Below are positions 5,533-20,303 of a stretch of DNA of 64,000 nucleotides, piece by piece. Source of the stretch: Thiohalomonadaceae bacterium (GTDB taxonomy: Bacteria > Pseudomonadota > Gammaproteobacteria > Thiohalomonadales > Thiohalomonadaceae); assembly GCA_050298555.1 (NCBI GenBank), contig JBNKUL010000057.1:4229-68228 (forward strand), read 5' to 3'. The position numbers and the translations under genes are program-made. Every line of letters begins with the position of its first letter. Position 1 is the first letter of the stretch. The notes under the pieces are model-generated. The model saw nothing but the letters and a program-made list of their open reading frames with translations, ran no database searches and had not been told where the DNA came from.

Positions 5533-5536
5533 GGGA

Positions 5537-6025
5537 CTACTGCTGCAGCGGCACCACCTGCAGGCGGCGACCGTTGTGCTCCACCTCACGGCCCAGAGGC
5601 CTTCCGGCCTTATTGGTCACGACACCAGCGGCCATCACCCCAAAGGCAAAACTGGCCCGCTGCGAGAAGCTGCCGCCAGCGCCAAGGTTCAGCACGGCAA
5701 TGGCGGCTATACGGTTTTCGTGCGTGGTAGAGAAGCGGCCGCTATAGGACAACTCTAACGGCTCACCGGCGGTAATTGCCCCCTGCCACATCAGCTCACC
5801 CTCCAGCAGCTCCATGTCCGCGGGCGGCTGTAGCATCACCCGCAGGTTGTTGCCGGAGACCCGGCTAGTGACCGTCACCACGAAGCTGACGACCTCGCCT
5901 CCGGTATCACCCTGCGGTTCGATGGTAATGCTCAACGGCCCCTGGGGCTTGGCGGTCTGTACCGCGGCGCAGTTCAGGGAGAAGAGTGCGAGAAGTAGTA
6001 ATATGAACAGTCTTGGTTTCAACAT
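5537..6025 (-). CDS. Small secreted protein of unknown function (162 aa)
   Basis: Clear signal peptide MLKPRLFILLLLALFSLNCAAV. Its stop lies 4 nt before the start of the downstream protease gene (operon-like). No recognisable motif. Confidence 0.5.
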   Translation of the reverse strand: MLKPRLFILLLLALFSLNCAAVQTAKPQGPLSITIEPQGDTGGEVVSFVVTVTSRVSGNNLRVMLQPPADMELLEGELMWQGAITAGEPLELSYSGRFSTTHENRIAAIAVLNLGAGGSFSQRASFAFGVMAAGVVTNKAGRPLGREVEHNGRRLQVVPLQQ

Positions 6026-6084
6026 AGCGCTTACTCTGTCTCAGTTCGATTCAACATAATGCTTACCCTGTCTCAATTCGACAG
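6021..6084 (-). repeat. Tandem ~32-nt imperfect direct duplication of the translation-initiation region of the 162-aa gene
   Basis: Plus strand: aacataGCgcttacTctgtctcaGttcgaTTC (6021-6052) versus aacataATgcttacCctgtctcaAttcgaCAG (6053-6084). Each copy contains an ATG on the minus strand (6025 and 6057). Confidence 0.65.
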
Positions 6085-6117
6085 AAAAAAAAGGGGGCGG
6101 TTCACACCGCCCCCTCC
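6085..6117 (-). terminator. Rho-independent terminator after the giant lipoprotein gene
   Basis: Minus strand reads GGGGGCGG-TGTGAA-CCGCCCCC followed by TTTTTTTT (8-bp GC stem, 8-T run). A second 7-bp hairpin at 6123-6140 lies directly after the stop codon. Confidence 0.65.
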
Positions 6118-6140
6118 TTTATCACTCCTGGAAAGGAGTG

Positions 6141-9100
6141 TTACTTCGCGCGGCGGGCTTCCGCACGCTTGTATGCCTTGTGGGCACGGCGCTTGGAGCT
6201 ACGCTCACGCTCAGCAGCCGCCTTGTCGGCAGTACTGGCGCCCGGCTTGTAGAAGGACTCAGTATTCCAGTCGCTGGTGCTGTTGACGTAGATGGTGTGA
6301 CCATGACAGCCATCCATACCACAGGCATCGACGCTGACACGGACATCCTCGGCGCCAACCGGCAAGTCTCCGCTTAAGCTGAAGTCACCAGTGCCCGCAT
6401 CGTAACTCATCGGCATGTCGCCCCACTGGTTCGGTGCGGTCAGGGAGGAGTCGAAGTAGCCGTACTCCCACATACCGGTGGTCGGGTCGAAGTACTCCAC
6501 ACTGGCCCAGACACTGTCTGCAACGAAGTTGGCGATATCCACCGAACCGGTTACGGTCTGGGTACCGGACAGACCGGTGGCACCGTGTGTCGGCGAGGTG
6601 ATGGTCACATACTGAGGCGGCATGATGCCGTTGGCGGTAGTGATATTGACGTTATACCAGTTCCAGTCCGCATCGTTGACCGAGACGTAGTTGTAACCGT
6701 TGTAGAGGCTGACATCGAAGCTGAATGCCCCACCCACGATCTCGAAGTTGCCCCAGCTATTACCGGTCCAGTACTCGCCCCAGCCATCGGAACCGGAAGT
6801 GGTGCCGCTGATAGTCACGGTAGTGGCGGTACCGGCATCCCAGTCGCTGTAGGCACAGCTACCCGACCAGCTATTGTCGGTAACACCCGCCGGTACCGTG
6901 AGGCTGATCGGCGCGTATGCCGGGGAATTGCTATCACTGGCAATAGTGACGCTGAGCCAGTTGTTACCATCGCTGATGTCGAACCACTGAGAGTCGTAGT
7001 AGCCATACATCGGGTCATAGGTAGCCGGGTCGCTGTCGTGCAGGTCGACGGTGGTATGCCAGTCGTAGGTGCCACTGGCATTAGCAACCGTATCGGCTAC
7101 CGCAACGATCTCCTCGCTACCGCCGCAGACACCGCTACTGATCTTGATGTTGCGACCGGGAACGGTGCTGGTACCCGAGATGATTACGGTGGGTGTAGTC
7201 ACCGGCATGATGCCGTAGGTGGCATCTGAGTAGCCGTACTCCCAGCCATCGCTTGTGAGCGCCACATTGTTGGCGTCGGTGATGCTATCGACGGTCAGCA
7301 TGGGAGCGACATAGGCACAGGTGGTATCGGTGGTCTGAAGCTCGATACCGACACTGGTCATGTTGGCATCATCCCAGATGTTCACCCAGTTGTAGCTGCC
7401 TGTACCACCAACGACGGGGAAGGTGACAGAGAACTGCTGATCCGGGTCAACACCGGCAACACCGCCACCGGGCAGGAGGAGCTCCTGATTCTCCCAGTAG
7501 TAACCGGTGCTATCGGAGCCGTTCCAGTCAGCCCACATGCTGGTGCTATTAGCCGGTGCGGTACCGGTGATGGTAGCGGTACAGCTATCAATCGATACCG
7601 GAGCAATCCAGCCATAGTTGTCAGCTACAACATCAGTTGTGTTGACTTTGGTAATGACCGGCTTCGGCACGCTCTGGCCGTTATCGGTGTAGATGTTGAG
7701 GCCGTACCAGTTACCGTTGCCGTCCTCGATGGAAATCCAGTTCCAGCCCTCGTAGAGGGTGATATCGAAGCTGAATACCCCACCAGTTGCGGTGAAGTTA
7801 ACAGAATCACTCCAGATGCCATCAGCACTGTGGTAGTACCAGCCGCTGGTGCTGCCATCCAATTCACCACTGACGGTGATCACACTGGTGGCAGTAGTGA
7901 CATCGGTAGCATTCCAGTCGGAACCCATGCCCCAGTCACCGGTAGAGGTAGCGGCACCCTCAGTAGTAGCAACAGAGGTGATGCTAACTGGCGGCACATA
8001 GGTCTGACCGGCCTCGGTGTAGATACCGAAGTTCGAACCGGTCCAGAGGTAGGTGTTGCCACCATCGCTACCATCGAAGTTGACGCTAATCCAGTTATCA
8101 CCCTGGTAGAGCGGCACACCGGTGATGGTAATCAGACCAAGACCATTAATAGTGTCGTAGTTCGGGTCAACCGTGATGTAACCGTTCTGGCTGGCACCCA
8201 TGGTCGGATCCCAGTAGTCGTTGACGTAGGCACCCGACTCATTGTTGAGCCACAGGTTGATACTAAACCAACCGCTGGTTGAGTTCATAATCGCACTGAT
8301 GTCGGCGTTATTCAGATCAACCGTAAACTGTGCGGTGAATGAACTTGCGGTCAGGGCATCGGCATGATTCCACGCACCGAGGTCGATGGCGTTACTGGCC
8401 TGGTCGGTCACGGAGAGCACTTCGATTGCCGGCGGGATACCACCGGTGGTCTTGACGCTGAAGCCGCGATAGAGGTCGGCACCGTCGTTCACATCAACCC
8501 AGTTCCAGCCCTGGAACAGGTTCACCGTAGCGGTAGCCGTGGCAGTACCGTCACCGTTATCGGTAAAGCTCAGCGGCTGATCGTCCCAGCCGCTCTCACT
8601 GTTCAGATAGAGCCAACCGCCGTTAGCCGCGGCAGTCGCGCCATTCGGGGAGGTTACGGTGATGGTGATGCTGTTCGCGTTATCGGCATCGTAACCGCCG
8701 ATCCACTCGCTGAAGGTCAGCGCACCCACGGTGTTACCGTCATCGGCCGCAACGGTGACACCGATATCCTTGCGTACACCGGGGTTCTTGACGCGCTTGA
8801 CGGCGCTGACGGCAGAGATATCGCGAACCATCTCTTTGACGCTCACATTGACGTCACCGTTGGTGTCGGGCAGGAAGTCGGCAGAGAGCTTGCTGCCCAG
8901 ACCGATAATCTCCCAAATGAACTCCTCACCTTCGCGCTCGATACCCCAGTCGACGTAGTTGCCCATTTCATCCTGGGTCTTGAAGCCGAAATAGTCGGAG
9001 ATATCAACGGCGCCGTTGGGCAGGCCCTGGGCCTCCGGAATGGTGAAGGTCAGGCGGCTCACGCCGTCAGTACCGGTCACGGTATCCAGGTTGGCCTTAT

Positions 9101-11174
9101 TGATGATCATCGCAAAGCCCAGCTCTTCCGGGTCACGGGTGTTGGCAATCATGAAGATGTAGCTCTGAACGCCGGTGGCATGCTCCCACTTGAAGGTCAG
9201 CGGGTCCATGTCACTCGGGATAGCGGCAAGGGTCGAGCCATTGGTCACAGGATCGGTATTGCCATTTTCATACATCTTCACATCGAGCAGGTCGAGGGAC
9301 ACCAGGGCGGTACCACGGTGGTCGGTCCCCTCGGAGAGACGCGAAACCTTCCAGGCGCCGTTGAGGTGCTTGACGCTAACGTAGAAGGTGTCTTCCGGCA
9401 TCGCATCACTACACTCTTTACTGGTGTTGGTGGTCGCGGCCGTGAAGTTGAAGGCGAAGTTAGCATTATCCGCATCCACCACATTGATGGTAGTGGCCGC
9501 GCCGGTGTCATCCGTGGCCAGGGCTGCACTCAGCTCAACGCTGCAGTTCGCCCACATGGTGGTGGCCATCTCCATCAGGCTCATGAACTCTTTCAGGCTG
9601 AGGCGACCGTTGCGGTTGACATCCTCCTCCATGAATTCGCCATAGTTGAGGTTGTACTCCATCACGAAGGTGGAGGTCATCAGGCTCTTCAGCAGGGTCA
9701 GGTTGCCATCGTTCATGGCCTGTACCCACTGACCAAAGAGCTCGAGCACCTCGGTCTGGGCGGCAATGGTATCTGCCGTACCCGTGGAGTCGATACCGTC
9801 GGCAGCGCCCACCGTGGTAAAGGTGCCGGTCAGGTCTGAGCTGGCGTTACCGGACAGGTCGCTGATGCCGCTGATGGTGTAGCTGTAGGTGCTATTCAGC
9901 TGCAGCGACTCGGTAAGGTCGAACTGGTAGAGATAGTTACCACTGGCATCCTGCCCCATGAACATCACGCCCGGCAGGTCGCCCACGCTGGGGGTGGAGG
10001 CAATACGCAGGGTATTGATGTCCAGCAGCTCATCGGAGCTCAGCTGCAGCGGTGTGGTGAGTGCCACATCGGTCGCACCGTTAGTGATGCTGAAGGTAGC
10101 GGTAGGACCGGAGCTGTCGCCAGCCACCGCGGTTACGGTACCCACTGCCTCGTAACCGGTGGTATTGCTGTAGACGTTGGCAACGGTTTCCGGGACGGTC
10201 ACGGTGTAGTCGCCTGCCGCCAGGTCGGTGTCAGGCTCGAAGGTCGCGGTCATCCAGTCGGCCGACAGCGCCCATTTACCAGCAACCGCACTACCATTTT
10301 CCACGGTGATGTTCTGCACACTACCGCGACTCATGGCCATATCGAAGGTCACCTGAATCGCCGCGTTGGCAGGCATCTCGCCGCCAGTCCAGGTCTTGGT
10401 GCCGTCGGTGTTCTTGTTGACGCCGAACATGGTGACCACGTTCGGGGTGACGTCGCTCGCCTCAGCACTGAGGTCATCGACGGTGACTGTACCGCCATCG
10501 GTGGTCGGCTCGGCCTTAAAGGCGGGCTGTACCGCAACGATCGGGTCGGTGGTGACACCGGCAACCGGGTCGAAGGTGGAGGGCTTGTAGACCAGCATGG
10601 TGTAGGTGCCGGAGGGGATGGGGTCACCATCTACGTATGCATCACCATTGGAGGCAGCAGTCGCACTACATTCAGCAGATGAAACACGGTCAGAGCACCC
10701 ATATACGTTCAGCGTATAAGCACCTGTACTATCTGTTACGTCTTGCGCCACGGGACTCAACCATTCAGGGTGATCCGCATCGTAGAGATAAACATAAGCG
10801 TTGGAGACAACATCACCGGCGGCAAACAGCGGCACGTCGGGGTTGCCGCCATTGATCATCGGCTTGTTGGCCACCCGGTAGCCCTTGCCGTTCGGACCGG
10901 GCTTCATCTTGGGTGCATGGGCCATGGCCTTGAGCTGGGCAGGTCCGGGCTTGGAGGAACCGGCAAGCAGGCTGGAGAGGGTCACCTTACCGGAAATGAC
11001 CGTAGCAACGGGGGTGGTACCGCCACCGGTGTCACCACCAGTATCGCCACCGGTGTCACCGCCAGTATCACCGGTAGTGGTGGTGCCACCGCCGCCGCCA
11101 CCACAGCCGACACTCACAAGTGCCAGCAGGGTGACGAGAAAAACTCTTCCAAACCGGTTTCTTAGCGAAGCCAT
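6141..11174 (-). CDS. Giant (1677 aa) multi-domain cell-envelope lipoprotein: Gly-rich tether, CarboxypepD_reg-like domain, two SbsA/Big_5-like Ig domains, NTF2-like domain with an EF-hand loop, about six Trp-rich beta-sandwich modules, Cys/His cluster and basic tail
   Basis: RBS GGAGAGGG lies 8 nt upstream of the ATG at 11174. Signal peptide ends in the lipobox-like LVSVGC. Uninterrupted 5,034-nt ORF with coding-like composition. Domain assignment is by eye from sequence patterns (see findings). Confidence 0.8.
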   Translation of the reverse strand: MASLRNRFGRVFLVTLLALVSVGCGGGGGGTTTTGDTGGDTGGDTGGDTGGGTTPVATVISGKVTLSSLLAGSSKPGPAQLKAMAHAPKMKPGPNGKGYRVANKPMINGGNPDVPLFAAGDVVSNAYVYLYDADHPEWLSPVAQDVTDSTGAYTLNVYGCSDRVSSAECSATAASNGDAYVDGDPIPSGTYTMLVYKPSTFDPVAGVTTDPIVAVQPAFKAEPTTDGGTVTVDDLSAEASDVTPNVVTMFGVNKNTDGTKTWTGGEMPANAAIQVTFDMAMSRGSVQNITVENGSAVAGKWALSADWMTATFEPDTDLAAGDYTVTVPETVANVYSNTTGYEAVGTVTAVAGDSSGPTATFSITNGATDVALTTPLQLSSDELLDINTLRIASTPSVGDLPGVMFMGQDASGNYLYQFDLTESLQLNSTYSYTISGISDLSGNASSDLTGTFTTVGAADGIDSTGTADTIAAQTEVLELFGQWVQAMNDGNLTLLKSLMTSTFVMEYNLNYGEFMEEDVNRNGRLSLKEFMSLMEMATTMWANCSVELSAALATDDTGAATTINVVDADNANFAFNFTAATTNTSKECSDAMPEDTFYVSVKHLNGAWKVSRLSEGTDHRGTALVSLDLLDVKMYENGNTDPVTNGSTLAAIPSDMDPLTFKWEHATGVQSYIFMIANTRDPEELGFAMIINKANLDTVTGTDGVSRLTFTIPEAQGLPNGAVDISDYFGFKTQDEMGNYVDWGIEREGEEFIWEIIGLGSKLSADFLPDTNGDVNVSVKEMVRDISAVSAVKRVKNPGVRKDIGVTVAADDGNTVGALTFSEWIGGYDADNANSITITVTSPNGATAAANGGWLYLNSESGWDDQPLSFTDNGDGTATATATVNLFQGWNWVDVNDGADLYRGFSVKTTGGIPPAIEVLSVTDQASNAIDLGAWNHADALTASSFTAQFTVDLNNADISAIMNSTSGWFSINLWLNNESGAYVNDYWDPTMGASQNGYITVDPNYDTINGLGLITITGVPLYQGDNWISVNFDGSDGGNTYLWTGSNFGIYTEAGQTYVPPVSITSVATTEGAATSTGDWGMGSDWNATDVTTATSVITVSGELDGSTSGWYYHSADGIWSDSVNFTATGGVFSFDITLYEGWNWISIEDGNGNWYGLNIYTDNGQSVPKPVITKVNTTDVVADNYGWIAPVSIDSCTATITGTAPANSTSMWADWNGSDSTGYYWENQELLLPGGGVAGVDPDQQFSVTFPVVGGTGSYNWVNIWDDANMTSVGIELQTTDTTCAYVAPMLTVDSITDANNVALTSDGWEYGYSDATYGIMPVTTPTVIISGTSTVPGRNIKISSGVCGGSEEIVAVADTVANASGTYDWHTTVDLHDSDPATYDPMYGYYDSQWFDISDGNNWLSVTIASDSNSPAYAPISLTVPAGVTDNSWSGSCAYSDWDAGTATTVTISGTTSGSDGWGEYWTGNSWGNFEIVGGAFSFDVSLYNGYNYVSVNDADWNWYNVNITTANGIMPPQYVTITSPTHGATGLSGTQTVTGSVDIANFVADSVWASVEYFDPTTGMWEYGYFDSSLTAPNQWGDMPMSYDAGTGDFSLSGDLPVGAEDVRVSVDACGMDGCHGHTIYVNSTSDWNTESFYKPGASTADKAAAERERSSKRRAHKAYKRAEARRAK
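11019..11072 (-). repeat. In-frame tandem repeat encoding (GDTGG)x4 in the lipoprotein tether
   Basis: DNA repeat with 15/30-nt periodicity: ggtgtcaccaccagtatcgccacc / ggtgtcaccgccagtatcaccggt. Confidence 0.7.
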
Positions 11175-11524
11175 AGTTTTACCCTCTCCAGTTCAAATAA
11201 CCGACTCGCTCGGTTTCTTAATAGTAATAATTTCCACAGTTGTGCCGCAGAAAATAGGCTAATCGCCAGCGGGATGCAAACCCTTTATAGAATTTGTCTA
11301 TTATTCCCCGAAGTATCAAAATGTCATCGTGATAAATTAAAGAACAACAGCACAATAGCTCGCTATCCTACTGTTTTAATTAATGATATGTGCGCCATCT
11401 CTTATGGACCCGCCCCCAATACACGCAATGGAACCAGGGGATATATGGAAGAGGGCAGCGCAATATTTTTTTTAAAACTGATATGTTGTTCACAAAAAGT
11501 CCGCCACCTTAGACCGGTATCGCA

Positions 11525-13702
11525 ATGAAACAACTGCTCAAACACAACAAGACGAATGCCGCCGCCCTAATCGCCCTAATTATTGGAATAGTGGTGAGCA
11601 GCCTATTCTATAGTGGTGCACTGGCTCGGCTGGAGTGGATCAGCTACGACCTGCGCATGCGTTACCACCAGGAGGAGAGCACGGTGCACCCGCAGGTAGC
11701 GGTGGTGCTGATCGACGAGGCCTCGCTGCAGGCGATGGATCCACTGGTCGGCCGCTGGCCCTGGCCGCGCTCCGTCTACTCGGAGCTGCTGGAGTTCTTC
11801 GCCATGGGTGGGGCGCGGGCTGTGGCCTTCGATATTCTGTTCCCCGAACGCGATACCCAGGGAGGAGTGACGGAAAACGGCTATGGCCCCAACGACCAGA
11901 GCTTCATCGATGCCACGGCGGCGGCTGGCAGCGTTATCCATGCGATGCAGGTGATGCGTGAGCTCGACAGTAGTGCGCACTCCACCACCCTAAACCGCCC
12001 GATACCCGAGGCCTTTGTACAGCAACACGCCATCAGCTCCGCCGTGGATTTTCCCGACTACGGCAATAACGACTATCTGCTGCCGATTGAGGGGTTGGCT
12101 CAGGCGGCGGCCGGCATCGGTATTGTGGAGATCGATCCTGATGACGACGGTGTCTACCGGCGTATTCGCCCCTTTAGTGTCTACCAGGGCAATGTCTTCC
12201 CTTCGCTGGGGATGGCACCGCTGTTCGATGGCGGCACGGTCCATTTTAACGGGGACCACATCACCACTGACAACGGCATGGTGCTACCCCTGGACGAGGA
12301 TGGCTTCTACCCCATCAAGATGGAGGGACGCTTCGAGCCCTACTCCATCAGCGGCATCCTCGCCACCATCCAGAACCTGAAGTCCGGCGATGTGGAGAAC
12401 CTGCTGGTGGATCCCTACGAGTTCGAGGACAAGGTGGTCTTTATCGGCGCCAGCGCCATCGGTGTGCAGGACATCAAGGCGACGCCGATGTCGGCCAAAA
12501 CACCCGGAGTGTTCCTGCACGCCTCAATGGCCAGCAGCCTGCTCAAGGGGGCCTCGCTACAGCCACCAAGTGCCACCGTAACGGTGCTGCTGATCATCGG
12601 ATTCACCCTGCTCACCACCGTGGGCATCCTGCTGTTCAGCCACAGCCATAGCTTCCAACAGGCGCTGCTGCCATTGATGCTGGCGGTTTGCTATGGCGGC
12701 TGGTCTATTTGGGAATTCGGCAACGGCCGGGTCTATGAGATGATTGCTCCGCTGCTCGCCATCGCCCTGAGCTGGCTTGGCAGCTCCTCCTACCTGGTCT
12801 TCACCGAGGGTAAGGACAAGCGCCGGGTGCGCAATATGCTGTCGCAATACGTCTCGCCCGCGGTACTCGCCACGGTGGTGGATAAATATGAGAACCAGAT
12901 CCAGGCCGAGGTCGGCAAGCGGGAGAATCTCACCATCCTCTTCTCCGACATTCGCGGTTTCACCGCCACCTCGGAAACCGTCGAGGCGGAAAGGGTGGTG
13001 GAGATGCTCAATACCTACTTCTCGGCGATGACCGATGTGATCTTCGACTACGAAGGGACACTGGATAAGTTCATCGGGGATGCCATCATGGCCTTCTGGG
13101 GGGCGCCAATCCTGCACGCCGACCACGCCGACCGCGGCGTGATGGCGGCCCTCACGATGCAGCGGGCACTGGTGAAGGTCAACGAGGAGCTTACCGCCAT
13201 CGGCCTGCCCAGCGTCACCATCGGCATCGGCCTTAACAGCGGCGACGTGATTTTGGGCAACATCGGTTCGGCGCGAAAGCTCGACTACACCATCATCGGC
13301 GACAACGTAAACCTGGCCTCCCGGCTGGAGGGGCTGACCAAGTATTACGGCGTACCGTTGATCATCTCGGAGAACACCCATGCCCAGCTGCAGCAATCCA
13401 TCCCCTGTGCGGTGGTCGATATGGTGCGGGTGAAGGGTAAGACGGTACCGATACGGCTATACTCACCCCTGGCGCTGCCCGATGATGATGAGGCGACTGT
13501 CCAAACGGCACGGCGCGTGGCAGAATTGAGCCATCAGGCCTTTGACAGCTACCTGGCGCAACGCTGGGATGATGCCATCGCCCTATACGAACAACTGCCA
13601 TATGAAACACTGAAAAAGGTGTTCATCACACGGTGCCAGGAATACCTCCTACACCCCCCGACAGAGGGATGGGACGGTGCGTACACCATGAATAGAAAAT
13701 AA
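11525..13702 (+). CDS. Receptor-type class III adenylate/guanylate cyclase with a periplasmic CHASE2 sensor domain
   Basis: N-terminal TM (ALIALIIGIVVSSLFYSGAL), a ~300-aa extracytoplasmic region, three TM helices, then the cyclase core with LTILFSDIRGFTATSE, KFIGDAIMAFWGAP and GLNSGDVILGNIGS...DYTIIGDNVNLASRLE. Confidence 0.87.
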   Translation: MKQLLKHNKTNAAALIALIIGIVVSSLFYSGALARLEWISYDLRMRYHQEESTVHPQVAVVLIDEASLQAMDPLVGRWPWPRSVYSELLEFFAMGGARAVAFDILFPERDTQGGVTENGYGPNDQSFIDATAAAGSVIHAMQVMRELDSSAHSTTLNRPIPEAFVQQHAISSAVDFPDYGNNDYLLPIEGLAQAAAGIGIVEIDPDDDGVYRRIRPFSVYQGNVFPSLGMAPLFDGGTVHFNGDHITTDNGMVLPLDEDGFYPIKMEGRFEPYSISGILATIQNLKSGDVENLLVDPYEFEDKVVFIGASAIGVQDIKATPMSAKTPGVFLHASMASSLLKGASLQPPSATVTVLLIIGFTLLTTVGILLFSHSHSFQQALLPLMLAVCYGGWSIWEFGNGRVYEMIAPLLAIALSWLGSSSYLVFTEGKDKRRVRNMLSQYVSPAVLATVVDKYENQIQAEVGKRENLTILFSDIRGFTATSETVEAERVVEMLNTYFSAMTDVIFDYEGTLDKFIGDAIMAFWGAPILHADHADRGVMAALTMQRALVKVNEELTAIGLPSVTIGIGLNSGDVILGNIGSARKLDYTIIGDNVNLASRLEGLTKYYGVPLIISENTHAQLQQSIPCAVVDMVRVKGKTVPIRLYSPLALPDDDEATVQTARRVAELSHQAFDSYLAQRWDDAIALYEQLPYETLKKVFITRCQEYLLHPPTEGWDGAYTMNRK

Positions 13703-13719
13703 TTATGGAGAGGGACGTT

Positions 13720-14193
13720 ATGAAGAGAACTCTGTTATTTGCCGCCCTGATGGCCGCATCCACGCTCAGCGCCGCGGAAACGCTCTACGTCCAGAGCAAC
13801 AAGGCCAAGCTTCTGGAGACACCCCAATTCAATGCCCCAGCTGTCGGCGAACTACAGAAGGGCAATGAAGTGAATGTACTGCAGCAGCAGAAGCGCTGGG
13901 TAGAGGTCGAGTATCAGGGCAACAGTGGCTGGCTTTCGCGCTTCCTGCTCTCCGACCACCCTCCCCTGAAGAAGGTGACGGTACTGGGTGATGGGGAAAC
14001 CCTGAAGCTAGAGGAGAACGCCCGGCGCAGGGCCTCCGCCGTGACCACCGCAGGTGCTGCCCGTGGCCTCTCCGCGGATGACCGCAAGCGTAGTAATAGC
14101 GGTGATAAGTCCGACTACTTCGCCCTGGAAAAGGTGGAAAACTACAAGGTCGAGGATAAGGCCGTCACTGAATTCATCGAGCAGGGTAAATAG
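13720..14193 (+). CDS. Periplasmic SH3b-domain protein
   Basis: Signal peptide MKRTLLFAALMAASTLSAAE. SH3_3-like core is LYVQSNKAKLLETPQFNAPAVGELQKGNEVNVLQQQKRWVEVEYQGNSGWLSRFLL. The ATG at 13720 follows GGAGAGGG. Confidence 0.7.
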   Translation: MKRTLLFAALMAASTLSAAETLYVQSNKAKLLETPQFNAPAVGELQKGNEVNVLQQQKRWVEVEYQGNSGWLSRFLLSDHPPLKKVTVLGDGETLKLEENARRRASAVTTAGAARGLSADDRKRSNSGDKSDYFALEKVENYKVEDKAVTEFIEQGK

Positions 14194-14195
14194 TA

Positions 14196-15041
14196 ATGAA
14201 AAGCGGCAAAGTCGCCACCAGGCTTCTGGGCATGGCCGCGGTCATGCTAATGGCATTCAACCTCCAGGCGGCGCAGGAATTCCGCCAGCGCATCCATGCG
14301 GTCAAGCTGGATGTAGAGGGCATCACCTCGGACGTCGAGGCGGAGATCGAGTTCGGCAGGGAGGTGGCCGCCCGCATCCTCGGCCGCTATTCACTGGATG
14401 ATAGCGAATCGATCAACCGCTATATCAACCTGGTCGGCCAGAGCGTGGTCCGGCACGCCGGACGACCGGAGTTGCAGTTCCACTTCGCCATGCTGGAGAG
14501 CGACGAGGTCAACGCCTACGCCGCCCCCGGTGGCTATATCTTTATAACCAGGGGGGCGCTAAAGCTGATGCGGGACGAGGCGGAGCTCGCCGCGGTACTG
14601 GCCCACGAGGTCGCCCACGTCACGCAGAAGCATATCGTCAAGGAGCTCAACATCCACGCCGCCGACGACTCCACCGAAGCGGGGCTGGCCGCCCTGCTCG
14701 GCGGTATGAGCGACCCGGCCCGGGTGGCCTTCCTGCAGGCCCTGGACAAGGCGGTAGAACTGCTGTTCTCCGCCGGCCTGAAGAAAGAGGACGAGTACGA
14801 GGCGGACCAGGTGGGAACCATGCTGAATGTCGCCAGCGGCTATGACGCCACCGCGCTGCACCGCTACCTGGACCGCGTCAAGCAGCAGAAGGGGGAGAAG
14901 ACCGCCATCCTCAGTCACACCCACCCCTCATTCTCCTCGCGCCTGACCTTGCTGCAAGGCCTGTTCCAGGAAGAGAAGCTGGAGCACGATGCAGACAAGA
15001 CGGTGAAGCAGCGCTTCGACACCCAAATCAGCCAACTGTGA
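14196..15041 (+). CDS. Periplasmic M48-family zinc metalloprotease
   Basis: Signal peptide present. NAYAAPGGYIFITRG, then the HExxH motif LAHEVAHV (14604-14618). Size is similar to the short M48 proteases of the YcaL/LoiP type. Confidence 0.85.
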   Translation: MKSGKVATRLLGMAAVMLMAFNLQAAQEFRQRIHAVKLDVEGITSDVEAEIEFGREVAARILGRYSLDDSESINRYINLVGQSVVRHAGRPELQFHFAMLESDEVNAYAAPGGYIFITRGALKLMRDEAELAAVLAHEVAHVTQKHIVKELNIHAADDSTEAGLAALLGGMSDPARVAFLQALDKAVELLFSAGLKKEDEYEADQVGTMLNVASGYDATALHRYLDRVKQQKGEKTAILSHTHPSFSSRLTLLQGLFQEEKLEHDADKTVKQRFDTQISQL

Positions 15042-15058
15042 ATTTAAGGAAGTGTGTA

Positions 15059-16318
15059 ATGAGCAATAATAAGAACACTTACCGTAGCGCTGTTCTGCTC
15101 TGCGGTCTGGCGACCTCTGGCCTCGCCGCTGCGGACGATTTCCACTACATCAATATGCAAATGGGCGATCGCGCCTCCGGCATGGCCGGCGCCTACACCG
15201 CGGTCTCCGACGACCCCTCCGGGCTGTTCTACAACCCGGCGGGCCTCACCTACATGGGCACCCGCAACCTCTCCGCCAGCATGAACGCCTACCACACCAC
15301 CAACCTCAAATATAAAGGGGTACTGGGTGGCGGTGACTGGAAACGCGAATCGGGCAACCTGGTGCCGAACTTTTTCGGTGTCGCACAACCCATGGGCATC
15401 GGGGTATTCGGCTTCTCCTATGCGGCCACCGATGCGATTGTGGAGAATCAGGACTCGGTCTTCTACAACGTGGGCACGCAAATAAAACAGTTCACCTTGA
15501 ACCTGAACAATGAGGAGAAGACCTACAAGATTGGTCCCTCCTTTGCCCTGGCGGTCAACGACGACCTCTCTGTGGGGATCACGCTTTATGCCCACCTACG
15601 CGACACCGAGACCATCTTCAACCAGAATATCATCCTCAATGACGATACCTACGAGTGGTCAAACAACTACACCCAAACCAGTGAGGTGGGGATAGAGCCG
15701 ATCATTGGCGTTATGTGGAGCCCGTTGGACAAGGTTTCATTCGGCCTGTCGGTCAGGACAACCCAGCTACTCAGCGCAGAGCAGACCATCCAGCAAGCCG
15801 TCTCGACTGACATCGGCTGCACCACCGGTACAGCATGCCCGTCCACGGTTCCGACCCCCACACTCATTAACGCTAGCGAAACACGCAGCTACCCGATTAG
15901 CACCTCTGTCGGTATCGCCTACTTCCCCAGCGATAAGCTGATCTACAGTATCGACTTCGATTATCACAGCACAGCGGACGGGGGAACCAAGCGCGCAAGC
16001 AACAAAACCGCAACCTGGAACGTGAAGGCCGGAATGGAGTATTACCTCTACAGCAACTGGGCACTTCGTGGCGGCATCTACACCAACAATGCCAACACCC
16101 CAGAAATCGATTCCAGCAAAACCGACCAGGATCAACATATCAACCTGTTAGGTTTCAGCCTCAGCGCCACGCGCTTTAGCCGTAACTCCTCCCTAAGCGT
16201 GGGCGTAAACTATGCGTCGGGCACCGGTGAGGCGCAGGTGATTAGCGGTACAACAGCCACCCAGGATGTCGATGCGAACAACCTCAGTCTCTTCCTCTCA
16301 ACCTCCTACAGCTACTAG
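15059..16318 (+). CDS. Outer-membrane beta-barrel protein, FadL/TodX-like
   Basis: Signal peptide AVLLCGLATSGLAAA. N-terminal plug-type motif GDRASGMAGAYTAVSDDPSGLFYNPAGL. Alternating amphipathic beta pattern throughout, and C-terminal ...LSTSYSY (aromatic terminus). Confidence 0.6.
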   Translation: MSNNKNTYRSAVLLCGLATSGLAAADDFHYINMQMGDRASGMAGAYTAVSDDPSGLFYNPAGLTYMGTRNLSASMNAYHTTNLKYKGVLGGGDWKRESGNLVPNFFGVAQPMGIGVFGFSYAATDAIVENQDSVFYNVGTQIKQFTLNLNNEEKTYKIGPSFALAVNDDLSVGITLYAHLRDTETIFNQNIILNDDTYEWSNNYTQTSEVGIEPIIGVMWSPLDKVSFGLSVRTTQLLSAEQTIQQAVSTDIGCTTGTACPSTVPTPTLINASETRSYPISTSVGIAYFPSDKLIYSIDFDYHSTADGGTKRASNKTATWNVKAGMEYYLYSNWALRGGIYTNNANTPEIDSSKTDQDQHINLLGFSLSATRFSRNSSLSVGVNYASGTGEAQVISGTTATQDVDANNLSLFLSTSYSY

Positions 16319-16440
16319 GACGTCGAATTCGTACGGCTTTGACCAAGCTCTCATAACTGCCGAATGCAGCTAGAATTATCATTCGAATTATCATAGGGTT
16401 GAGCCATTGATATGAACGACACGGGATACATGTTTGGGAT

Positions 16441-18171
16441 ATGGCGAGCTCTAGTATGAATGTCAGTTTGAGCGGCCTGGCTCGCAAGCTGGTCAATGAC
16501 GGCCTGCTGAGTGAAGAGGCGGCCGTCAAGGCCACCGAAACGGCACAACAGGAGAAGCGCCCCTTCGTCAGCTATGTGGTGGCGGAGGGACTTGTCGACT
16601 CCCTGGCATTGGCCTCCACCGCGGCGCAGGAGTTCGGCGTGCCGCTGTTCGATATCGACGTGGTCGAGCTCGATGATGAGGTCACCAAGCTCGTCGACGA
16701 AAAGCTGATACGCAGCCACCACGCCCTGCCCCTGTTCAAGCGCGGCAATCGCCTGTTTGTCGCCGTCTCCGACCCCACCAACCTGGCCGCCCTGGACAAC
16801 ATCAAGTTCCACGTGGGCGTCACCACCGAGGCTGTGCTGGTTCAGGAAGACAAGCTGACCCGGGTAATTGAAAAGGCGATGGAGGCGGGCAGTGCCGCCT
16901 CCCTCGGCGAGGGGCTGGACGATGCCGACCTCGACGGCCTGGAGGTCAGCGCCGAGGACGAGGACAAGGAAGACGAGGGGCTGGATAAGGAGATCGACGA
17001 CGCCCCGGTCGTGCGCTTCGTCAACAAGATCCTGCTCGACGCCATCAACAAGGGGGCGTCGGATATCCACTTCGAGCCGTATGAGAAGCGCTACCGCGTG
17101 CGCTTCCGCACCGACGGTATGCTCAAAGAGGTCGCCTCGCCGCCGATCCAGCTGGCCGGCAAGATCGCCGCCCGCGTCAAGGTCATGTCGCGCCTCGATA
17201 TCTCCGAGAAACGGGTACCGCAGGACGGCCGTATCAAGCTGACCCTGTCGAAGAACAAAGCGATCGACTTTCGTGTCAACACATGCCCTACCCTGTTCGG
17301 CGAGAAGATCGTACTGCGTATTCTCGACCCCTCCAGTGCCAAGCTGGGTATCGATGCCCTGGGTTATGAGCCGGAGCAGAAGCAGCTCTACATGGACAAC
17401 CTGGCAAAGCCTTACGGCATGATCCTGGTGACCGGCCCCACCGGTTCCGGTAAGACCGTATCGCTCTACACCGGCCTCAACATCCTCAACACCGAGGACG
17501 TCAACATCTCCACCGCAGAGGACCCGGCTGAGATCAATCTCGAGGGGATCAACCAGGTCAATGTGAACGATAAGGTGGGGCTGACCTTCGCCGCGGCACT
17601 TAAAGCGTTTTTGCGTCAGGACCCGGACATCATCATGGTGGGTGAGATCCGTGACATGGAGACGGCGGAGATCGCCGTCAAGGCGGCACAGACCGGCCAC
17701 ATGGTAATGTCCACCCTGCACACCAATGACGCGCCGCAGACTATCACCCGTCTGATGAACATCGGCATCCCGCCCTACAACATCGCCGCCGCGGTAAACC
17801 TGATCATCGCCCAGCGCCTGGGGCGCCGCCTCTGCAGCCACTGCAAGGAGGTCGACGATGCGCCGAAGGAGGCCCTGCTGGAGGAGGGCTTCAGCGAGGA
17901 GGAGATCGATGCGGGGATGAATATCTACAAGGCCAACCACGAGGGTTGCGATCAATGCTCCGGTGGCTACAAGGGGCGGGTCGGCATCTACCAGGTCATG
18001 CCCATGTCCGAGGAGATGGGGCGCCTCATCATGAAGGGCAACGCCACCTCCTATGACATCGCCGATCAGGCGGCGAAAGAGGGTATTCCGGATATCCGCC
18101 AGTCTGCACTGAAAAAGGTAAAGAACGGCCTCACCAGCCTGGAAGAAGCCAACCGCGTGACTAAGGACTAA
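16441..18171 (+). CDS. pilB: Type IV pilus assembly ATPase
   Basis: GspE/PilB family. Walker A GPTGSGKT, MVGEIRD, and the tetracysteine CSHC...CDQC. Confidence 0.95.
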   Translation: MASSSMNVSLSGLARKLVNDGLLSEEAAVKATETAQQEKRPFVSYVVAEGLVDSLALASTAAQEFGVPLFDIDVVELDDEVTKLVDEKLIRSHHALPLFKRGNRLFVAVSDPTNLAALDNIKFHVGVTTEAVLVQEDKLTRVIEKAMEAGSAASLGEGLDDADLDGLEVSAEDEDKEDEGLDKEIDDAPVVRFVNKILLDAINKGASDIHFEPYEKRYRVRFRTDGMLKEVASPPIQLAGKIAARVKVMSRLDISEKRVPQDGRIKLTLSKNKAIDFRVNTCPTLFGEKIVLRILDPSSAKLGIDALGYEPEQKQLYMDNLAKPYGMILVTGPTGSGKTVSLYTGLNILNTEDVNISTAEDPAEINLEGINQVNVNDKVGLTFAAALKAFLRQDPDIIMVGEIRDMETAEIAVKAAQTGHMVMSTLHTNDAPQTITRLMNIGIPPYNIAAAVNLIIAQRLGRRLCSHCKEVDDAPKEALLEEGFSEEEIDAGMNIYKANHEGCDQCSGGYKGRVGIYQVMPMSEEMGRLIMKGNATSYDIADQAAKEGIPDIRQSALKKVKNGLTSLEEANRVTKD

Positions 18172-18174
18172 ACC

Positions 18175-19404
18175 ATGGCTGAAAAAGCAAAACTCGACAC
18201 CTTTGTCTGGGAGGGGACGGACAAGCGGGGCGCCAAAAAGGGCGGCGAGATGCCCGGCCAGAGCGTATCCATGATTCGCGCGGAGCTGCGCAAGCTTGGC
18301 ATCACCCCCATTAAGGTAAAAAAGAAGCCCAAGGCCATCTTTGGCGGCGGTGGCCCCAAGGGAAAGAAGATCATCCCCAAGGACATCGCCATTTTCTCCC
18401 GCCAGATGGCGGTGATGATGTCCTCGGGGGTACCACTGGTGCAGTCCTTCGACATCATGGGTAAGGGTGCGGAGAACCCCAACATGCGTGCCCTGATCTA
18501 CGCCATTAAGGGCGACGTCGAGGGCGGTGCCACCCTGGCAGAGGCGTTCAGGAAACACCCGCAGCACTTCGATGACCTTACCTGCAACCTGGTCCATGCC
18601 GGTGAGCAGGCGGGTATCCTGGAGAGCCTGCTGGACAAGATTGCCACCTACAAGGAGAAGACCGAGGCCCTGAAGGGCAAGATCAAGAAGGCACTGTTTT
18701 ACCCAACAGCAGTACTTGTCGTCGCCTTTATTATCACCGCAGTGCTACTGATCTTCGTTATCCCCCAGTTCGAGGCGCTGTTCTCCGGCTTCGGTGCCGA
18801 CCTGCCGGCGCTCACCGCCTTCGTGGTGAAACTGTCGAAATTCTTTCAGGAGCAGTGGTTCTTCATCTTCGCTGGCATCGGTGCAATCGTATACAGCTTC
18901 AAACAGGCAAAACAGCGTTCAAAAGCCTTCCGCGAGGGCATTGAGCGCATGTCGCTGAAGGCACCGGTCATCGGCGAGTTGCTCAACAAGGCGGCCATTG
19001 CCCGCTTCTCCCGTACCCTCTCCACCATGTTCGCCGCCGGCGTCCCCCTGGTTGAGGCAATGGAGTCGGTAGCCGGCGCCGTGGGTAACGTGGTCTACCG
19101 TGAGGCGGTGCTGGGTATGCGCGATGATATCTCCACCGGTACCTCGATCACCGCGAGTATGGAACAGGCCGGGATCTTCCCCAACATGGTAACTCAGATG
19201 ACCTCTATCGGTGAGGAGGCGGGCTCGCTCGATACCATGCTGGGAAAGGTGGCCGATTTCTACGAGCAGGAGGTGGACGACGCCGTGGACGCCCTCACCA
19301 GCCTGCTGGAGCCGCTGATCATGGCCTTCCTCGGTGTCGTTGTCGGCGGCCTGGTACTCGCCATGTACCTGCCTATCTTCAAGATGGGCGATGCGGTTCT
19401 GTAA
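18175..19404 (+). CDS. pilC: Type IV pilus inner-membrane platform protein
   Basis: GspF/PilC duplicated domains, three TM segments, and a position between pilB and pilD. Confidence 0.95.
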   Translation: MAEKAKLDTFVWEGTDKRGAKKGGEMPGQSVSMIRAELRKLGITPIKVKKKPKAIFGGGGPKGKKIIPKDIAIFSRQMAVMMSSGVPLVQSFDIMGKGAENPNMRALIYAIKGDVEGGATLAEAFRKHPQHFDDLTCNLVHAGEQAGILESLLDKIATYKEKTEALKGKIKKALFYPTAVLVVAFIITAVLLIFVIPQFEALFSGFGADLPALTAFVVKLSKFFQEQWFFIFAGIGAIVYSFKQAKQRSKAFREGIERMSLKAPVIGELLNKAAIARFSRTLSTMFAAGVPLVEAMESVAGAVGNVVYREAVLGMRDDISTGTSITASMEQAGIFPNMVTQMTSIGEEAGSLDTMLGKVADFYEQEVDDAVDALTSLLEPLIMAFLGVVVGGLVLAMYLPIFKMGDAVL

Positions 19405-19424
19405 CGCCCCACTCCTGAGTCACT

Positions 19425-20303
19425 ATGTTTAACAACCTGATATCTCTGCTGCAGGCCGAACCCGGCCTGCTCACCTTCTGCTGTGGCCTGCTGGGGCTGA
19501 TTATCGGCAGCTTCCTCAATGTGGTGATCTACCGCCTGCCGGTGATGATGCAGCGCTCCTGGCGTCAGCAGTGCCAGGAGTTGCTGGAGCTGGAAGCAGA
19601 ACAGGAGCAGGAGCGCTTCAATCTGGCGACCCCTGCCTCACGCTGTCCCGGCTGCGGCCACAAGATTGGCGCGCTGGAGAACATCCCCGTGCTTAGCTTT
19701 CTGCTGCAAAAGGGACGCTGTAAGCACTGCGGCATCAAGATCTCGCCGCGTTACCCCGCCATCGAACTGCTAAGCGCCCTTATCAGTGCCGCGGTAGCCT
19801 GGCAGCTGGGCTTCGGCCTGCCGCTCGCCTTCGCCCTGCTGCTGAGCTGGGCGCTTATCGCACTGACCTTCATCGACTTCGATCACCAACTGCTGCCCGA
19901 CGACATCACCCTGCCACTGCTGTGGCTGGGGCTGCTGCTGAGCACCGTCAACGTCTTTACCGACATGCAGTCGAGCATTATCGGCGCGGCGGCCGGTTAC
20001 CTCTCCCTGTGGACGGTCTACCAGCTGTTTAAGCTCATTACCGGCAAGGAGGGGATGGGTTACGGCGACTTCAAGCTGCTCGCCGTATTCGGCGCCTGGT
20101 TCGGCTGGCAGGCACTACCGATGGTGATCCTGCTCTCCTCCCTGGTCGGCGCGGTTGTCGGCATCTCCCTGATCCTGATGCTCGGTCGAGACCGCCAGCT
20201 ACCCATCCCCTTCGGTCCCTATCTCGCCGCCGCCGGCTGGATCGCCATGCTGTGGGGCGACACCATCATCAGCGGCTACTGGCGCTTTATGGTGCAGGGC
20301 TAG
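19425..20303 (+). CDS. pilD: Prepilin leader peptidase / N-methyltransferase
   Basis: Motifs CPGCGHKI...CKHCG and the catalytic GYGDFKLL. Polytopic. Confidence 0.95.
   Translation: MFNNLISLLQAEPGLLTFCCGLLGLIIGSFLNVVIYRLPVMMQRSWRQQCQELLELEAEQEQERFNLATPASRCPGCGHKIGALENIPVLSFLLQKGRCKHCGIKISPRYPAIELLSALISAAVAWQLGFGLPLAFALLLSWALIALTFIDFDHQLLPDDITLPLLWLGLLLSTVNVFTDMQSSIIGAAAGYLSLWTVYQLFKLITGKEGMGYGDFKLLAVFGAWFGWQALPMVILLSSLVGAVVGISLILMLGRDRQLPIPFGPYLAAAGWIAMLWGDTIISGYWRFMVQG

Follow-up and report, generated by a model that had tools for sequence, protein, structure and literature searches.

A recurrent four-gene module predicted to couple a CHASE2 receptor adenylate cyclase to an SH3b protein, a BepA-like protease and a FadL-fold outer-membrane barrel

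Many bacteria carry CHASE2, a sensor domain found on cyclases, diguanylate cyclases and kinases. The sole input reported for it in the literature we consulted is the sensing of a plant protein in Sinorhizobium meliloti, which depends on the outer-membrane protein NsrA. The CHASE2 cyclases CyaK, CyaD1 and CyaD2 of that species depend on NsrA (PMC13001267, PMC7529298) and sense a proteinaceous signal through the outer-membrane protein (PMC7529298), a dependence that the first-pass annotation of the DNA described here had stated and that these papers confirm. Here we describe a four-gene cluster at positions 11525-16318 of a 64,000-nucleotide stretch from a Thiohalomonadaceae bacterium (positions 4,229 to 68,228 of contig JBNKUL010000057.1, assembly GCA_050298555.1; hereafter the window), in which a CHASE2 receptor cyclase is encoded together with an SH3b protein, an M48 protease and a FadL-fold outer-membrane barrel. 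The module is real, conserved and uncharacterised, its receptor cyclase is predicted to depend on envelope accessory proteins, and its set of partners is distinct. Joint action of the four proteins, which would end in the synthesis of cyclic AMP (cAMP), is well supported by comparative genomics and by the conservation of their motifs.

The four genes share the plus strand and are tightly packed. Gene 1 (11525-13702; 725 residues) encodes a CHASE2 receptor with a class III cyclase, gene 2 (13720-14193; 157 residues) a secreted SH3b protein with a conserved C-terminal tail, gene 3 (14196-15041; 281 residues) a secreted BepA-like M48 zinc metalloprotease that consists of the protease domain only, and gene 4 (15059-16318; 419 residues) a FadL-fold beta-barrel of the outer membrane, whose N-terminal hatch is highly conserved. 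The gaps between them are 17, 2 and 17 nucleotides, taking ATG starts, and these starts agree with those of the NCBI gene caller on GCA_050297915.1 (JBNKTF010000008.1), so the packing described in the first-pass annotation is borne out. The longest open reading frame (ORF) of gene 2 begins at 13705 and that of gene 4 with a GTG at 15038; Shine-Dalgarno-like sequences lie 5' of the starts adopted here (GGAGAGGG before 13720 and AAGGAA before 15059). The domain identities proposed in the same annotation (CHASE2 and cyclase, SH3b, M48, FadL-like) are likewise upheld, as all of the Pfam matches exceed the curated cut-offs against which they were judged, and the motifs it quoted were all found in the products at the positions given.

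The argument that these genes form a functional unit comes from their linkage, which survives both rearrangement of the genes and changes of the flanking DNA. A search with gene 4 revealed a large and well-conserved subfamily of barrel relatives, present in at least 478 species genomes from about seven phyla in a scan of one genome per species. We surveyed the loci of the best 80 of these at least 478 relatives (39-54% identity), a few of which come from the same metagenome-assembled genome (MAG) or from closely related MAGs. All four genes are present in 63 loci; six others, each with 3 kb or more of sequence on either side, have just the SH3b-M48-barrel trio, and contig ends truncate the remaining 11. 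Among the 69 informative loci the cyclase is linked in 63 (91%), a strongly positive outcome for the co-occurrence in other genomes to which the first-pass annotation had looked. Gene order is colinear (cyclase, SH3b, M48, barrel) in 49 of the 63 complete loci; the barrel gene is convergent to the other three in six (Gallionellaceae, Sideroxydans and Aquabacterium), and a few others are permuted differently. The 80 loci span Gammaproteobacteria (Thiotrichaceae, Natronospira, Saccharospirillum, Acidiferrobacteraceae and Ectothiorhodospiraceae), Gallionellaceae, Sideroxydans, Nitrosomonadales, Aquabacterium and Dongiaceae, as well as Nitrospirota, Nitrospinota, Geobacteraceae, Desulfuromonadales, Desulfobulbales, Desulfobacterales, Aquificaceae and Hydrogenothermaceae.

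Individual look-ups from either end of the cluster gave the same picture. Starting from the barrel at 45-50% identity, the same four families in the same order and with unrelated flanks were present in all three cases (one Nitrospirota MAG, one metagenome contig from ENA and a further NCBI assembly). Starting from the cyclase, the trio was present in five of five; Natronospira proteinivora, the cultured Oceanospirillum sanctuarii and, from a different phylum, Desulfurispira natronophila are among these. Cultured carriers of the module include O. sanctuarii, Saccharospirillum salsuginis, Natronospira and Desulfurispira. Since the four genes recur together in more than 60 genomes, their adjacency by chance is excluded. 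A census of 102 upstream and 74 downstream neighbours, made in search of a fifth gene, found no family in more than six loci, and because of this we take the conserved unit to be a self-contained set of four genes. Parts of the unit are sometimes duplicated, as a tandem pair of M48 genes, a second barrel gene at the same locus or a second copy of the module in the same MAG (L043, 6030-7896; L064, 3620-9266; L047 and L059, same MAG; L numbers denote loci).

The product of gene 1 belongs to the CHASE2 family by its match to Pfam CHASE2 (PF05226) over residues 20-363 (1.1e-50; 173 bits against a cut-off of 26.3), and residues 465-640 match Guanylate_cyc at 1.6e-24. An AlphaFold2 model of residues 1-452 (window 11525-12880) was obtained with a predicted local distance difference test (pLDDT) score of 88 and a predicted template-modelling (pTM) score of 0.84. 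In this model a single membrane helix at the N-terminus leads into a periplasmic domain of alpha/beta type, after which come three more helices. The modelled helices (2-30, 350-370, 376-399 and 407-442) fit the topology suggested earlier, of one transmembrane segment, about 300 periplasmic residues, three transmembrane segments and a cyclase. Foldseek returned no structural neighbour of this CHASE2 model in the PDB (best E 0.32). The sole poorly modelled part is the loop at 312-326, yet the sequence there is conserved (G313, D316, K318, T320, P327 and G328).

On the cytoplasmic side, the cyclase domain retains the residues for metal and substrate binding that the first-pass annotation would have it carry. 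The motifs FSDIRGFT (473-480), DKFIGDAIMAFWGAP (514-528) and GDNVNLASRLE (within 587-602) are present, as are the metal-binding D475 and D519, the substrate-binding K515 and T589, and the transition-state residues N595 and R599, and the motifs that hold these residues are about 90-100% conserved among 57 orthologues. The roles of these residues are those established for class III cyclases, in which a lysine paired with a threonine (or aspartate) marks the adenylate cyclases of subclass IIIb. Because of the Lys515/Thr589 pair, we predict that gene 1 encodes an adenylate-specific class IIIb cyclase whose product is cAMP; the output had earlier been given as either cAMP or cGMP, and of these only cAMP is predicted. 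The cyclase domain is followed by a conserved C-terminal extension of about 85 residues (approximately 641-725; window 13445-13702), with conserved Y, W, RC and WDG and a terminal K, which matches no family.

The N-termini of products 2-4, read from the sequence alone, resemble signal peptides (a positive start, a hydrophobic core and an Ala-rich end), as had been proposed. Gene 2 has a bacterial SH3 domain at residues 36-79 (SH3_3, PF08239; 1.6e-9; 38.3 bits against a cut-off of 27). Its C-terminal 75 residues match no family. They include a tail motif, RRRASxxTxAAAARGL...DRxR...DYxAL (residues 102-140; window 14023-14139), that lies outside any Pfam domain and is conserved in 77 family members. 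The gene 2 family as a whole comprises 450 representative clusters at E<=1e-10, mostly of 155-170 residues and aligned end to end. The tail motif could be a substrate, a pseudo-substrate or a docking peptide for a protease.

Gene 3 encodes a member of the M48 family (Peptidase_M48; 2.1e-31; 109.6 bits against a cut-off of 20.3), with NAYAAPGGY at 106-114, HEVAHV at 137-142 (H137-E138-x-x-H141) and DEYEAD at 199-204. Across 82 members, conservation reaches at least 90% for each of the HEXXH motif, the DExxAD motif with its Glu, and THP...R. Among the NCBIfam models BepA fits best (NF052400; 1.2e-31), but the score of 110 bits falls far short of the 570-bit equivalog cut-off and the match covers only profile positions 43-251 of 483, the protein stopping before the TPR domain; gene 3 is accordingly related to BepA without being its equivalog. 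The BepA structure 6sar in the PDB matches at 7e-23. A second structure, the Geobacter M48 protein 3c37, was considered as an orthologue from the module and rejected as a paralogue, since it matches a Geobacter module protease (E 3e-23) about as well as Escherichia coli BepA does (1.6e-22). In 50 of about 70 loci the SH3b stop codon overlaps the M48 start by 4 nucleotides, and because of this overlap the gene arrangement suggests that the two proteins are translationally coupled and made in fixed proportion.

Gene 4 falls within the FadL/TodX family (Toluene_X, PF03349; 2.1e-10; 40.1 bits against a cut-off of 29.7). It carries the motif GMAGAYTAVSDDPSGLFYNPAGL at 41-63, with NPA at 59-61, and ends in SYSY, an aromatic C-terminus. 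The AlphaFold2 barrel is modelled with a pLDDT of about 80 over residues 70-418 and a pTM of 0.72, and its best Foldseek matches are E. coli FadL (E 1e-14, TM score 0.61), the BamG chains of Bacteroidota (TM score 0.63-0.67), TodX, TbuX and CymD, although identity to any solved member of the fold is only about 13-15% (13% for BamG). The family profile aligns the hatch, including NPA, to FadL residues 10-48. The most conserved stretch of the family is the mature N-terminus with the hatch (ADDxHYxNxxxGDRAxGxxGAYTAxxDxxxGxxxNPAG); both termini are highly conserved, and variability is high in at least one long stretch of loop, at alignment columns ~270-330. Neither of two more specific assignments holds. 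The FadL transporter equivalog (NF007988) scores 18.6 bits against 585 and covers residues 317-389 only, and PorV/PorQ (NF033709; 9e-9) scores 35.3 bits against 90 over residues 31-79 only, which is the shared hatch motif. Of the plugged FadL-type barrel proposed earlier, the FadL-like barrel and a hatch with NPA are therefore retained, and the plug itself is not confidently modelled.

Taken together, we lean towards a reading in which the four genes specify one envelope-spanning signalling device that ends in cAMP synthesis and works as a proteolytic relay, a reading to which we give somewhat better than even chances. The FadL-fold barrel would be the outward-facing component. The cue, whether a ligand of hydrophobic or amphipathic character or something that happens at the surface, would act at the barrel and alter its periplasm-facing N-terminal hatch, and the state of the barrel would be relayed by the periplasmic pair, with the SH3b-tail protein serving as adaptor for the M48 protease. 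Cleavage of one of three sites, the hatch, the tail of the SH3b protein or the flexible, conserved CHASE2 loop (313-329), would then switch the cyclase, so that the periplasmic CHASE2 domain is the receiver and the cytoplasmic class IIIb domain alters its cAMP output. We favour proteolysis because one would hardly expect a small hydrophobic ligand to be paired with a protease, because the SH3b and M48 genes appear to be translationally coupled, and because the surfaces that are conserved, on the hatch, on the tail of the SH3b protein and on the loop of CHASE2, are periplasmic. The behaviour of FadL channels, which release their substrates into the membrane and not into the periplasm, and the existence of FadL-fold proteins that bind proteins (PorV and BamG; PMC12578637) argue in the same direction.

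Several points weigh against the proteolytic relay as we have drawn it. It is inferred that the products interact physically, and so are the way in which information travels, the kind of cue and the substrate of the protease. The hatch that would carry the signal is poorly modelled (pLDDT <50 over residues 1-67) and its position in the barrel is not confident, and classical FadL proteins are transporters, not receptors. The HMMs (hidden Markov models) used in the survey, for five domains and run on all ORFs of the 80 loci, were built from the module family itself, and sampling of the closest relatives (39-54% identity) limits the claim of co-occurrence to near family members. Furthermore, the six trio-only loci (L010, L027, L036, L039, L076 and L081) have no CHASE2 cyclase within 5.6-6.6 kb upstream or 3.5-8 kb downstream, so the trio may act alone or with a distant partner. 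Alternative sensors at these six loci were sought and set aside, as the adjacent large ORFs encode housekeeping enzymes or secreted Ig-like or TPS proteins.

The DNA around the module is annotated with housekeeping genes (nadC, pilBCD, coaE and zapD). Upstream, an AT-rich intergenic region (11175-11524; no strand; GC 0.47 compared with about 0.60 in its flanks) separates the module from a divergent gene and is presumed to hold the promoters of both. The single sigma-70-like match within it is on the minus strand, at 11327-11300, and no plus-strand promoter for the module was identified in the region. The CRP-like half-match TGATATGTTGTTCACA at 11479-11494 was discarded as a CRP site: it has two mismatches, and the window holds 14 such matches where 19.7 are expected by chance. 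Downstream, 137 nucleotides (16319-16455) lead to pilB-pilC-pilD (16456-20303), followed by coaE and zapD. No intrinsic terminator above chance was found inside the four-gene cluster and none 3' of gene 4; therefore transcriptional read-through from the module into pilB and the type IV pilus genes is possible.

The divergent genes form a three-gene operon on the minus strand (3562-11174), which encodes a 1677-residue Big_5 protein (6141-11174), a 162-residue protein (5537-6025) and a 656-residue putative lipoprotein with weak SdrD_B and CarboxypepD_reg matches (3562-5532). Homologues of all three adjoin the module in Saccharospirillum (L078; upstream, same strand), and homologues of two or three adjoin it in six Nitrospirota loci (L020, L024, L046, L053, L080 and L067; downstream, same strand). 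These homologues occur beside the module in three different arrangements and are absent at most other loci, and because of that absence the operon is possibly an accessory association outside the core of the module. More broadly, a large secreted protein (Big_5, S8 subtilase/PKD, TPS or Calx-beta) adjoins about one quarter of the loci.

Genes of cyclic-nucleotide metabolism form a second recurrent class of neighbour. A class II cAMP phosphodiesterase lies beside the module in six loci (L086, 1907-2686; L074, 2901-3686; L039; L048; L041; and O. sanctuarii L090), GAF-HD proteins in four (L073, L075, L082 and L090), and cNMP_binding-EAL proteins in Natronospira L016, L045 and L094. Mapped stretches of such genes run from 5538 to 7988 in L090, 3063 to 5874 in L094, 2096 to 3930 in L075 and 9160 to 11021 in L082. 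Small cNMP-binding proteins also occur among these neighbours. The recurrence of these genes fits a cyclic-nucleotide output, and their products are possible local effectors. A link to cyclic di-GMP (c-di-GMP) turnover and surface behaviour, with the module of the window adjoining pilBCD, is suggestive only.

Four other explanations deserve consideration. The first-pass annotation itself proposed import and processing of a ligand, with the barrel admitting a small, possibly hydrophobic molecule, the SH3b protein and the protease binding or trimming it in the periplasm, and the product binding CHASE2 directly. The FadL fold of gene 4 with its NPA hatch, the periplasmic location of all the partners, and a CHASE2 model with a well-folded alpha/beta domain that could hold a ligand all speak for such a flow, and the large secreted proteases and Ig-like proteins that often adjoin the module could supply peptide signals. 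Nevertheless, we consider it unlikely. FadL-type channels generally release their substrates laterally into the membrane, a protease would not be expected to process a hydrophobic small molecule, and a plugged barrel of 14 strands is not wide enough to pass polypeptides. Moreover, conservation of the hatch and N-terminus combined with variability of the loop region at alignment columns ~270-330 is what one would sooner expect of a surface for interaction than of a path for transport.

About equally improbable, in our judgement, is a role in envelope surveillance, in which the barrel would serve as a sentinel substrate of the beta-barrel assembly pathway. Were assembly to fail, the BepA-like protease, aided by the SH3b protein, would degrade the barrel, and either the resulting fragments or the partners thereby released would activate the CHASE2 cyclase. 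Such a role would resemble the way in which unassembled porins trigger the sigma-E response. It would draw on the relationship of gene 3 to the protease domain of BepA, whose role is quality control of stalled outer-membrane proteins, on the resemblance of the barrel model to BamG, which is associated with the beta-barrel assembly machinery (BAM; PMC12578637), and on the highly conserved termini of the barrel. Gene 3, however, has no counterpart of the TPR domain through which BepA docks on BAM, the likeness to BamG is at the level of the fold only (13% identity), and the neighbourhood census shows no tie to bam, sigma-E or other stress genes.

We are more doubtful still that the trio serves the handling or uptake of surface proteins, with the barrel holding or shuttling secreted proteins in the manner of PorV, the protease maturing them, and the cyclase regulating or reporting on the process. 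The N-terminal region of gene 4 does match the PorV/PorQ model at 9e-9, but the score falls short of the curated cut-off and the alignment does not extend beyond the hatch motif that is shared. The large secreted proteins beside about a quarter of the loci, and the recurrence in two phyla of the window's operon for proteins of 1677, 162 and 656 residues, would be expected from such a function; most loci, however, lack such a neighbour, and no type IX secretion genes were seen in the annotated neighbourhood of the window or among the commonest neighbour families of the related loci. The six loci that carry the trio alone also point this way, against the 91% of informative loci in which the cyclase is linked.

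Finally, membership in a Pycsar-type anti-phage system is highly improbable and is rejected, and chance adjacency is excluded by the recurrence described above. The cyclase domain does match PADLOC PycC models (best 1.8e-30), and a class II phosphodiesterase or Apyc1-like gene adjoins some loci. The cyclase domain alone gives this match, however, which reflects only descent common to class III cyclases; no defence model is matched by genes 2-4. A Pycsar system pairs its cyclase with an adjacent effector that has a cyclic-nucleotide-binding domain and senses infection in the cytoplasm. Here the sensor of the cyclase is periplasmic, its Lys/Thr residues are of the adenylate type, and the module sits in a housekeeping context with no nucleotide-binding effector inside it.

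Returning to the proteolytic relay, a more specific form of it can be entertained, although we regard it as something of a long shot. CHASE2 might not be a small-molecule receptor at all; the BepA-like protease and its SH3b adaptor would instead read the FadL-fold barrel as a sentinel and make or remove a protein or peptide ligand of CHASE2. Such a relay, if true, would provide the first mechanistic model for CHASE2 input and a new class of trans-envelope second-messenger signalling. The broader reading, if true, would extend the roles of the FadL fold and of BepA-like proteases to signalling, and would link events at the outer membrane to cAMP and possibly, judging from the neighbouring genes, to c-di-GMP turnover.

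Several parts of the module have described relatives, and we compare it with these. A full-text search, with most subscription journals outside its coverage, found no paper joining CHASE2 or an adenylate cyclase with M48, SH3 or FadL. In overall logic the module can be likened to cell-surface signalling of the FecA-FecR-FecI type, in which an outer-membrane barrel bears a periplasmic signalling element at its N-terminus, regulated proteolysis takes part in a relay through the periplasm and inner membrane, and the output is cytoplasmic. It differs in lacking a TonB-dependent transducer, an anti-sigma factor and an extracytoplasmic function (ECF) sigma factor, in its second-messenger output and in the family of its protease. 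The closest characterised relative of gene 3 is BepA (E. coli YfgC), the BAM-associated M48 protease, and both are periplasmic with HEXXH, Glu ligand and HP motifs; BepA, however, has 487 residues with a TPR domain, whereas gene 3 has 281 residues, no TPR domain and an SH3b partner. Gene 4 resembles the FadL/TodX channels in its barrel, by structural match, and in its N-terminal NPA hatch, and it shares a highly conserved N-terminus with BamG (PMC12578637). The fold has precedents for non-transport roles in PorV and in BamG, a BAM-associated FadL homologue (PMC12578637). A genetic tie to a cyclase, a protease and an SH3b protein is unreported for FadL, TodX, PorV and BamG, and is a feature of gene 4.

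The NsrA system of S. meliloti is the closest parallel for the whole. Both systems have an inner-membrane CHASE2 class III cyclase, an outer-membrane barrel encoded beside it and a cAMP output, and the S. meliloti cyclases are homologous to gene 1 (27-30% identity over 80-94% of the protein). The pSymB ORF directly upstream of the CyaK homologue encodes 1219 residues with FecR and TPR domains and a C-terminal barrel; we take it to be nsrA, from its size and position. NsrA differs in being a single protein of about 1200 residues, with FecR, TPR and a barrel that occupies residues 600-1200 (PMC7529298) and is not FadL-like. Homology between the gene 4 and NsrA barrels was considered and rejected (hhalign probability 4.5%), and Pfam found no FecR or TPR domain in the four products or the four flanking products scanned, so that an NsrA-type partner is not among them. 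Conversely, FecR-domain proteins precede all three alphaproteobacterial CHASE2 cyclases examined, beside which no SH3b or M48 gene was seen. On a Shinella plasmid (L088, 1-14070), a distant CHASE2 cyclase and its partner, a protein with a FecR domain, are encoded within a cluster for NHLP bacteriocin export (C39 peptidase, secretion protein and ABC exporters), a setting that hints at a peptide as the signal of that system.

Given FecR-type partners in the alphaproteobacteria and the SH3b/M48/FadL-like trio here, gene content indicates that CHASE2 cyclases have at least two unrelated sets of partners, and that of the module is distinct. Alongside the NsrA system it offers a second and much more widespread genetic handle on CHASE2 activation, with three defined partners, a range of about seven phyla and cultured carriers.

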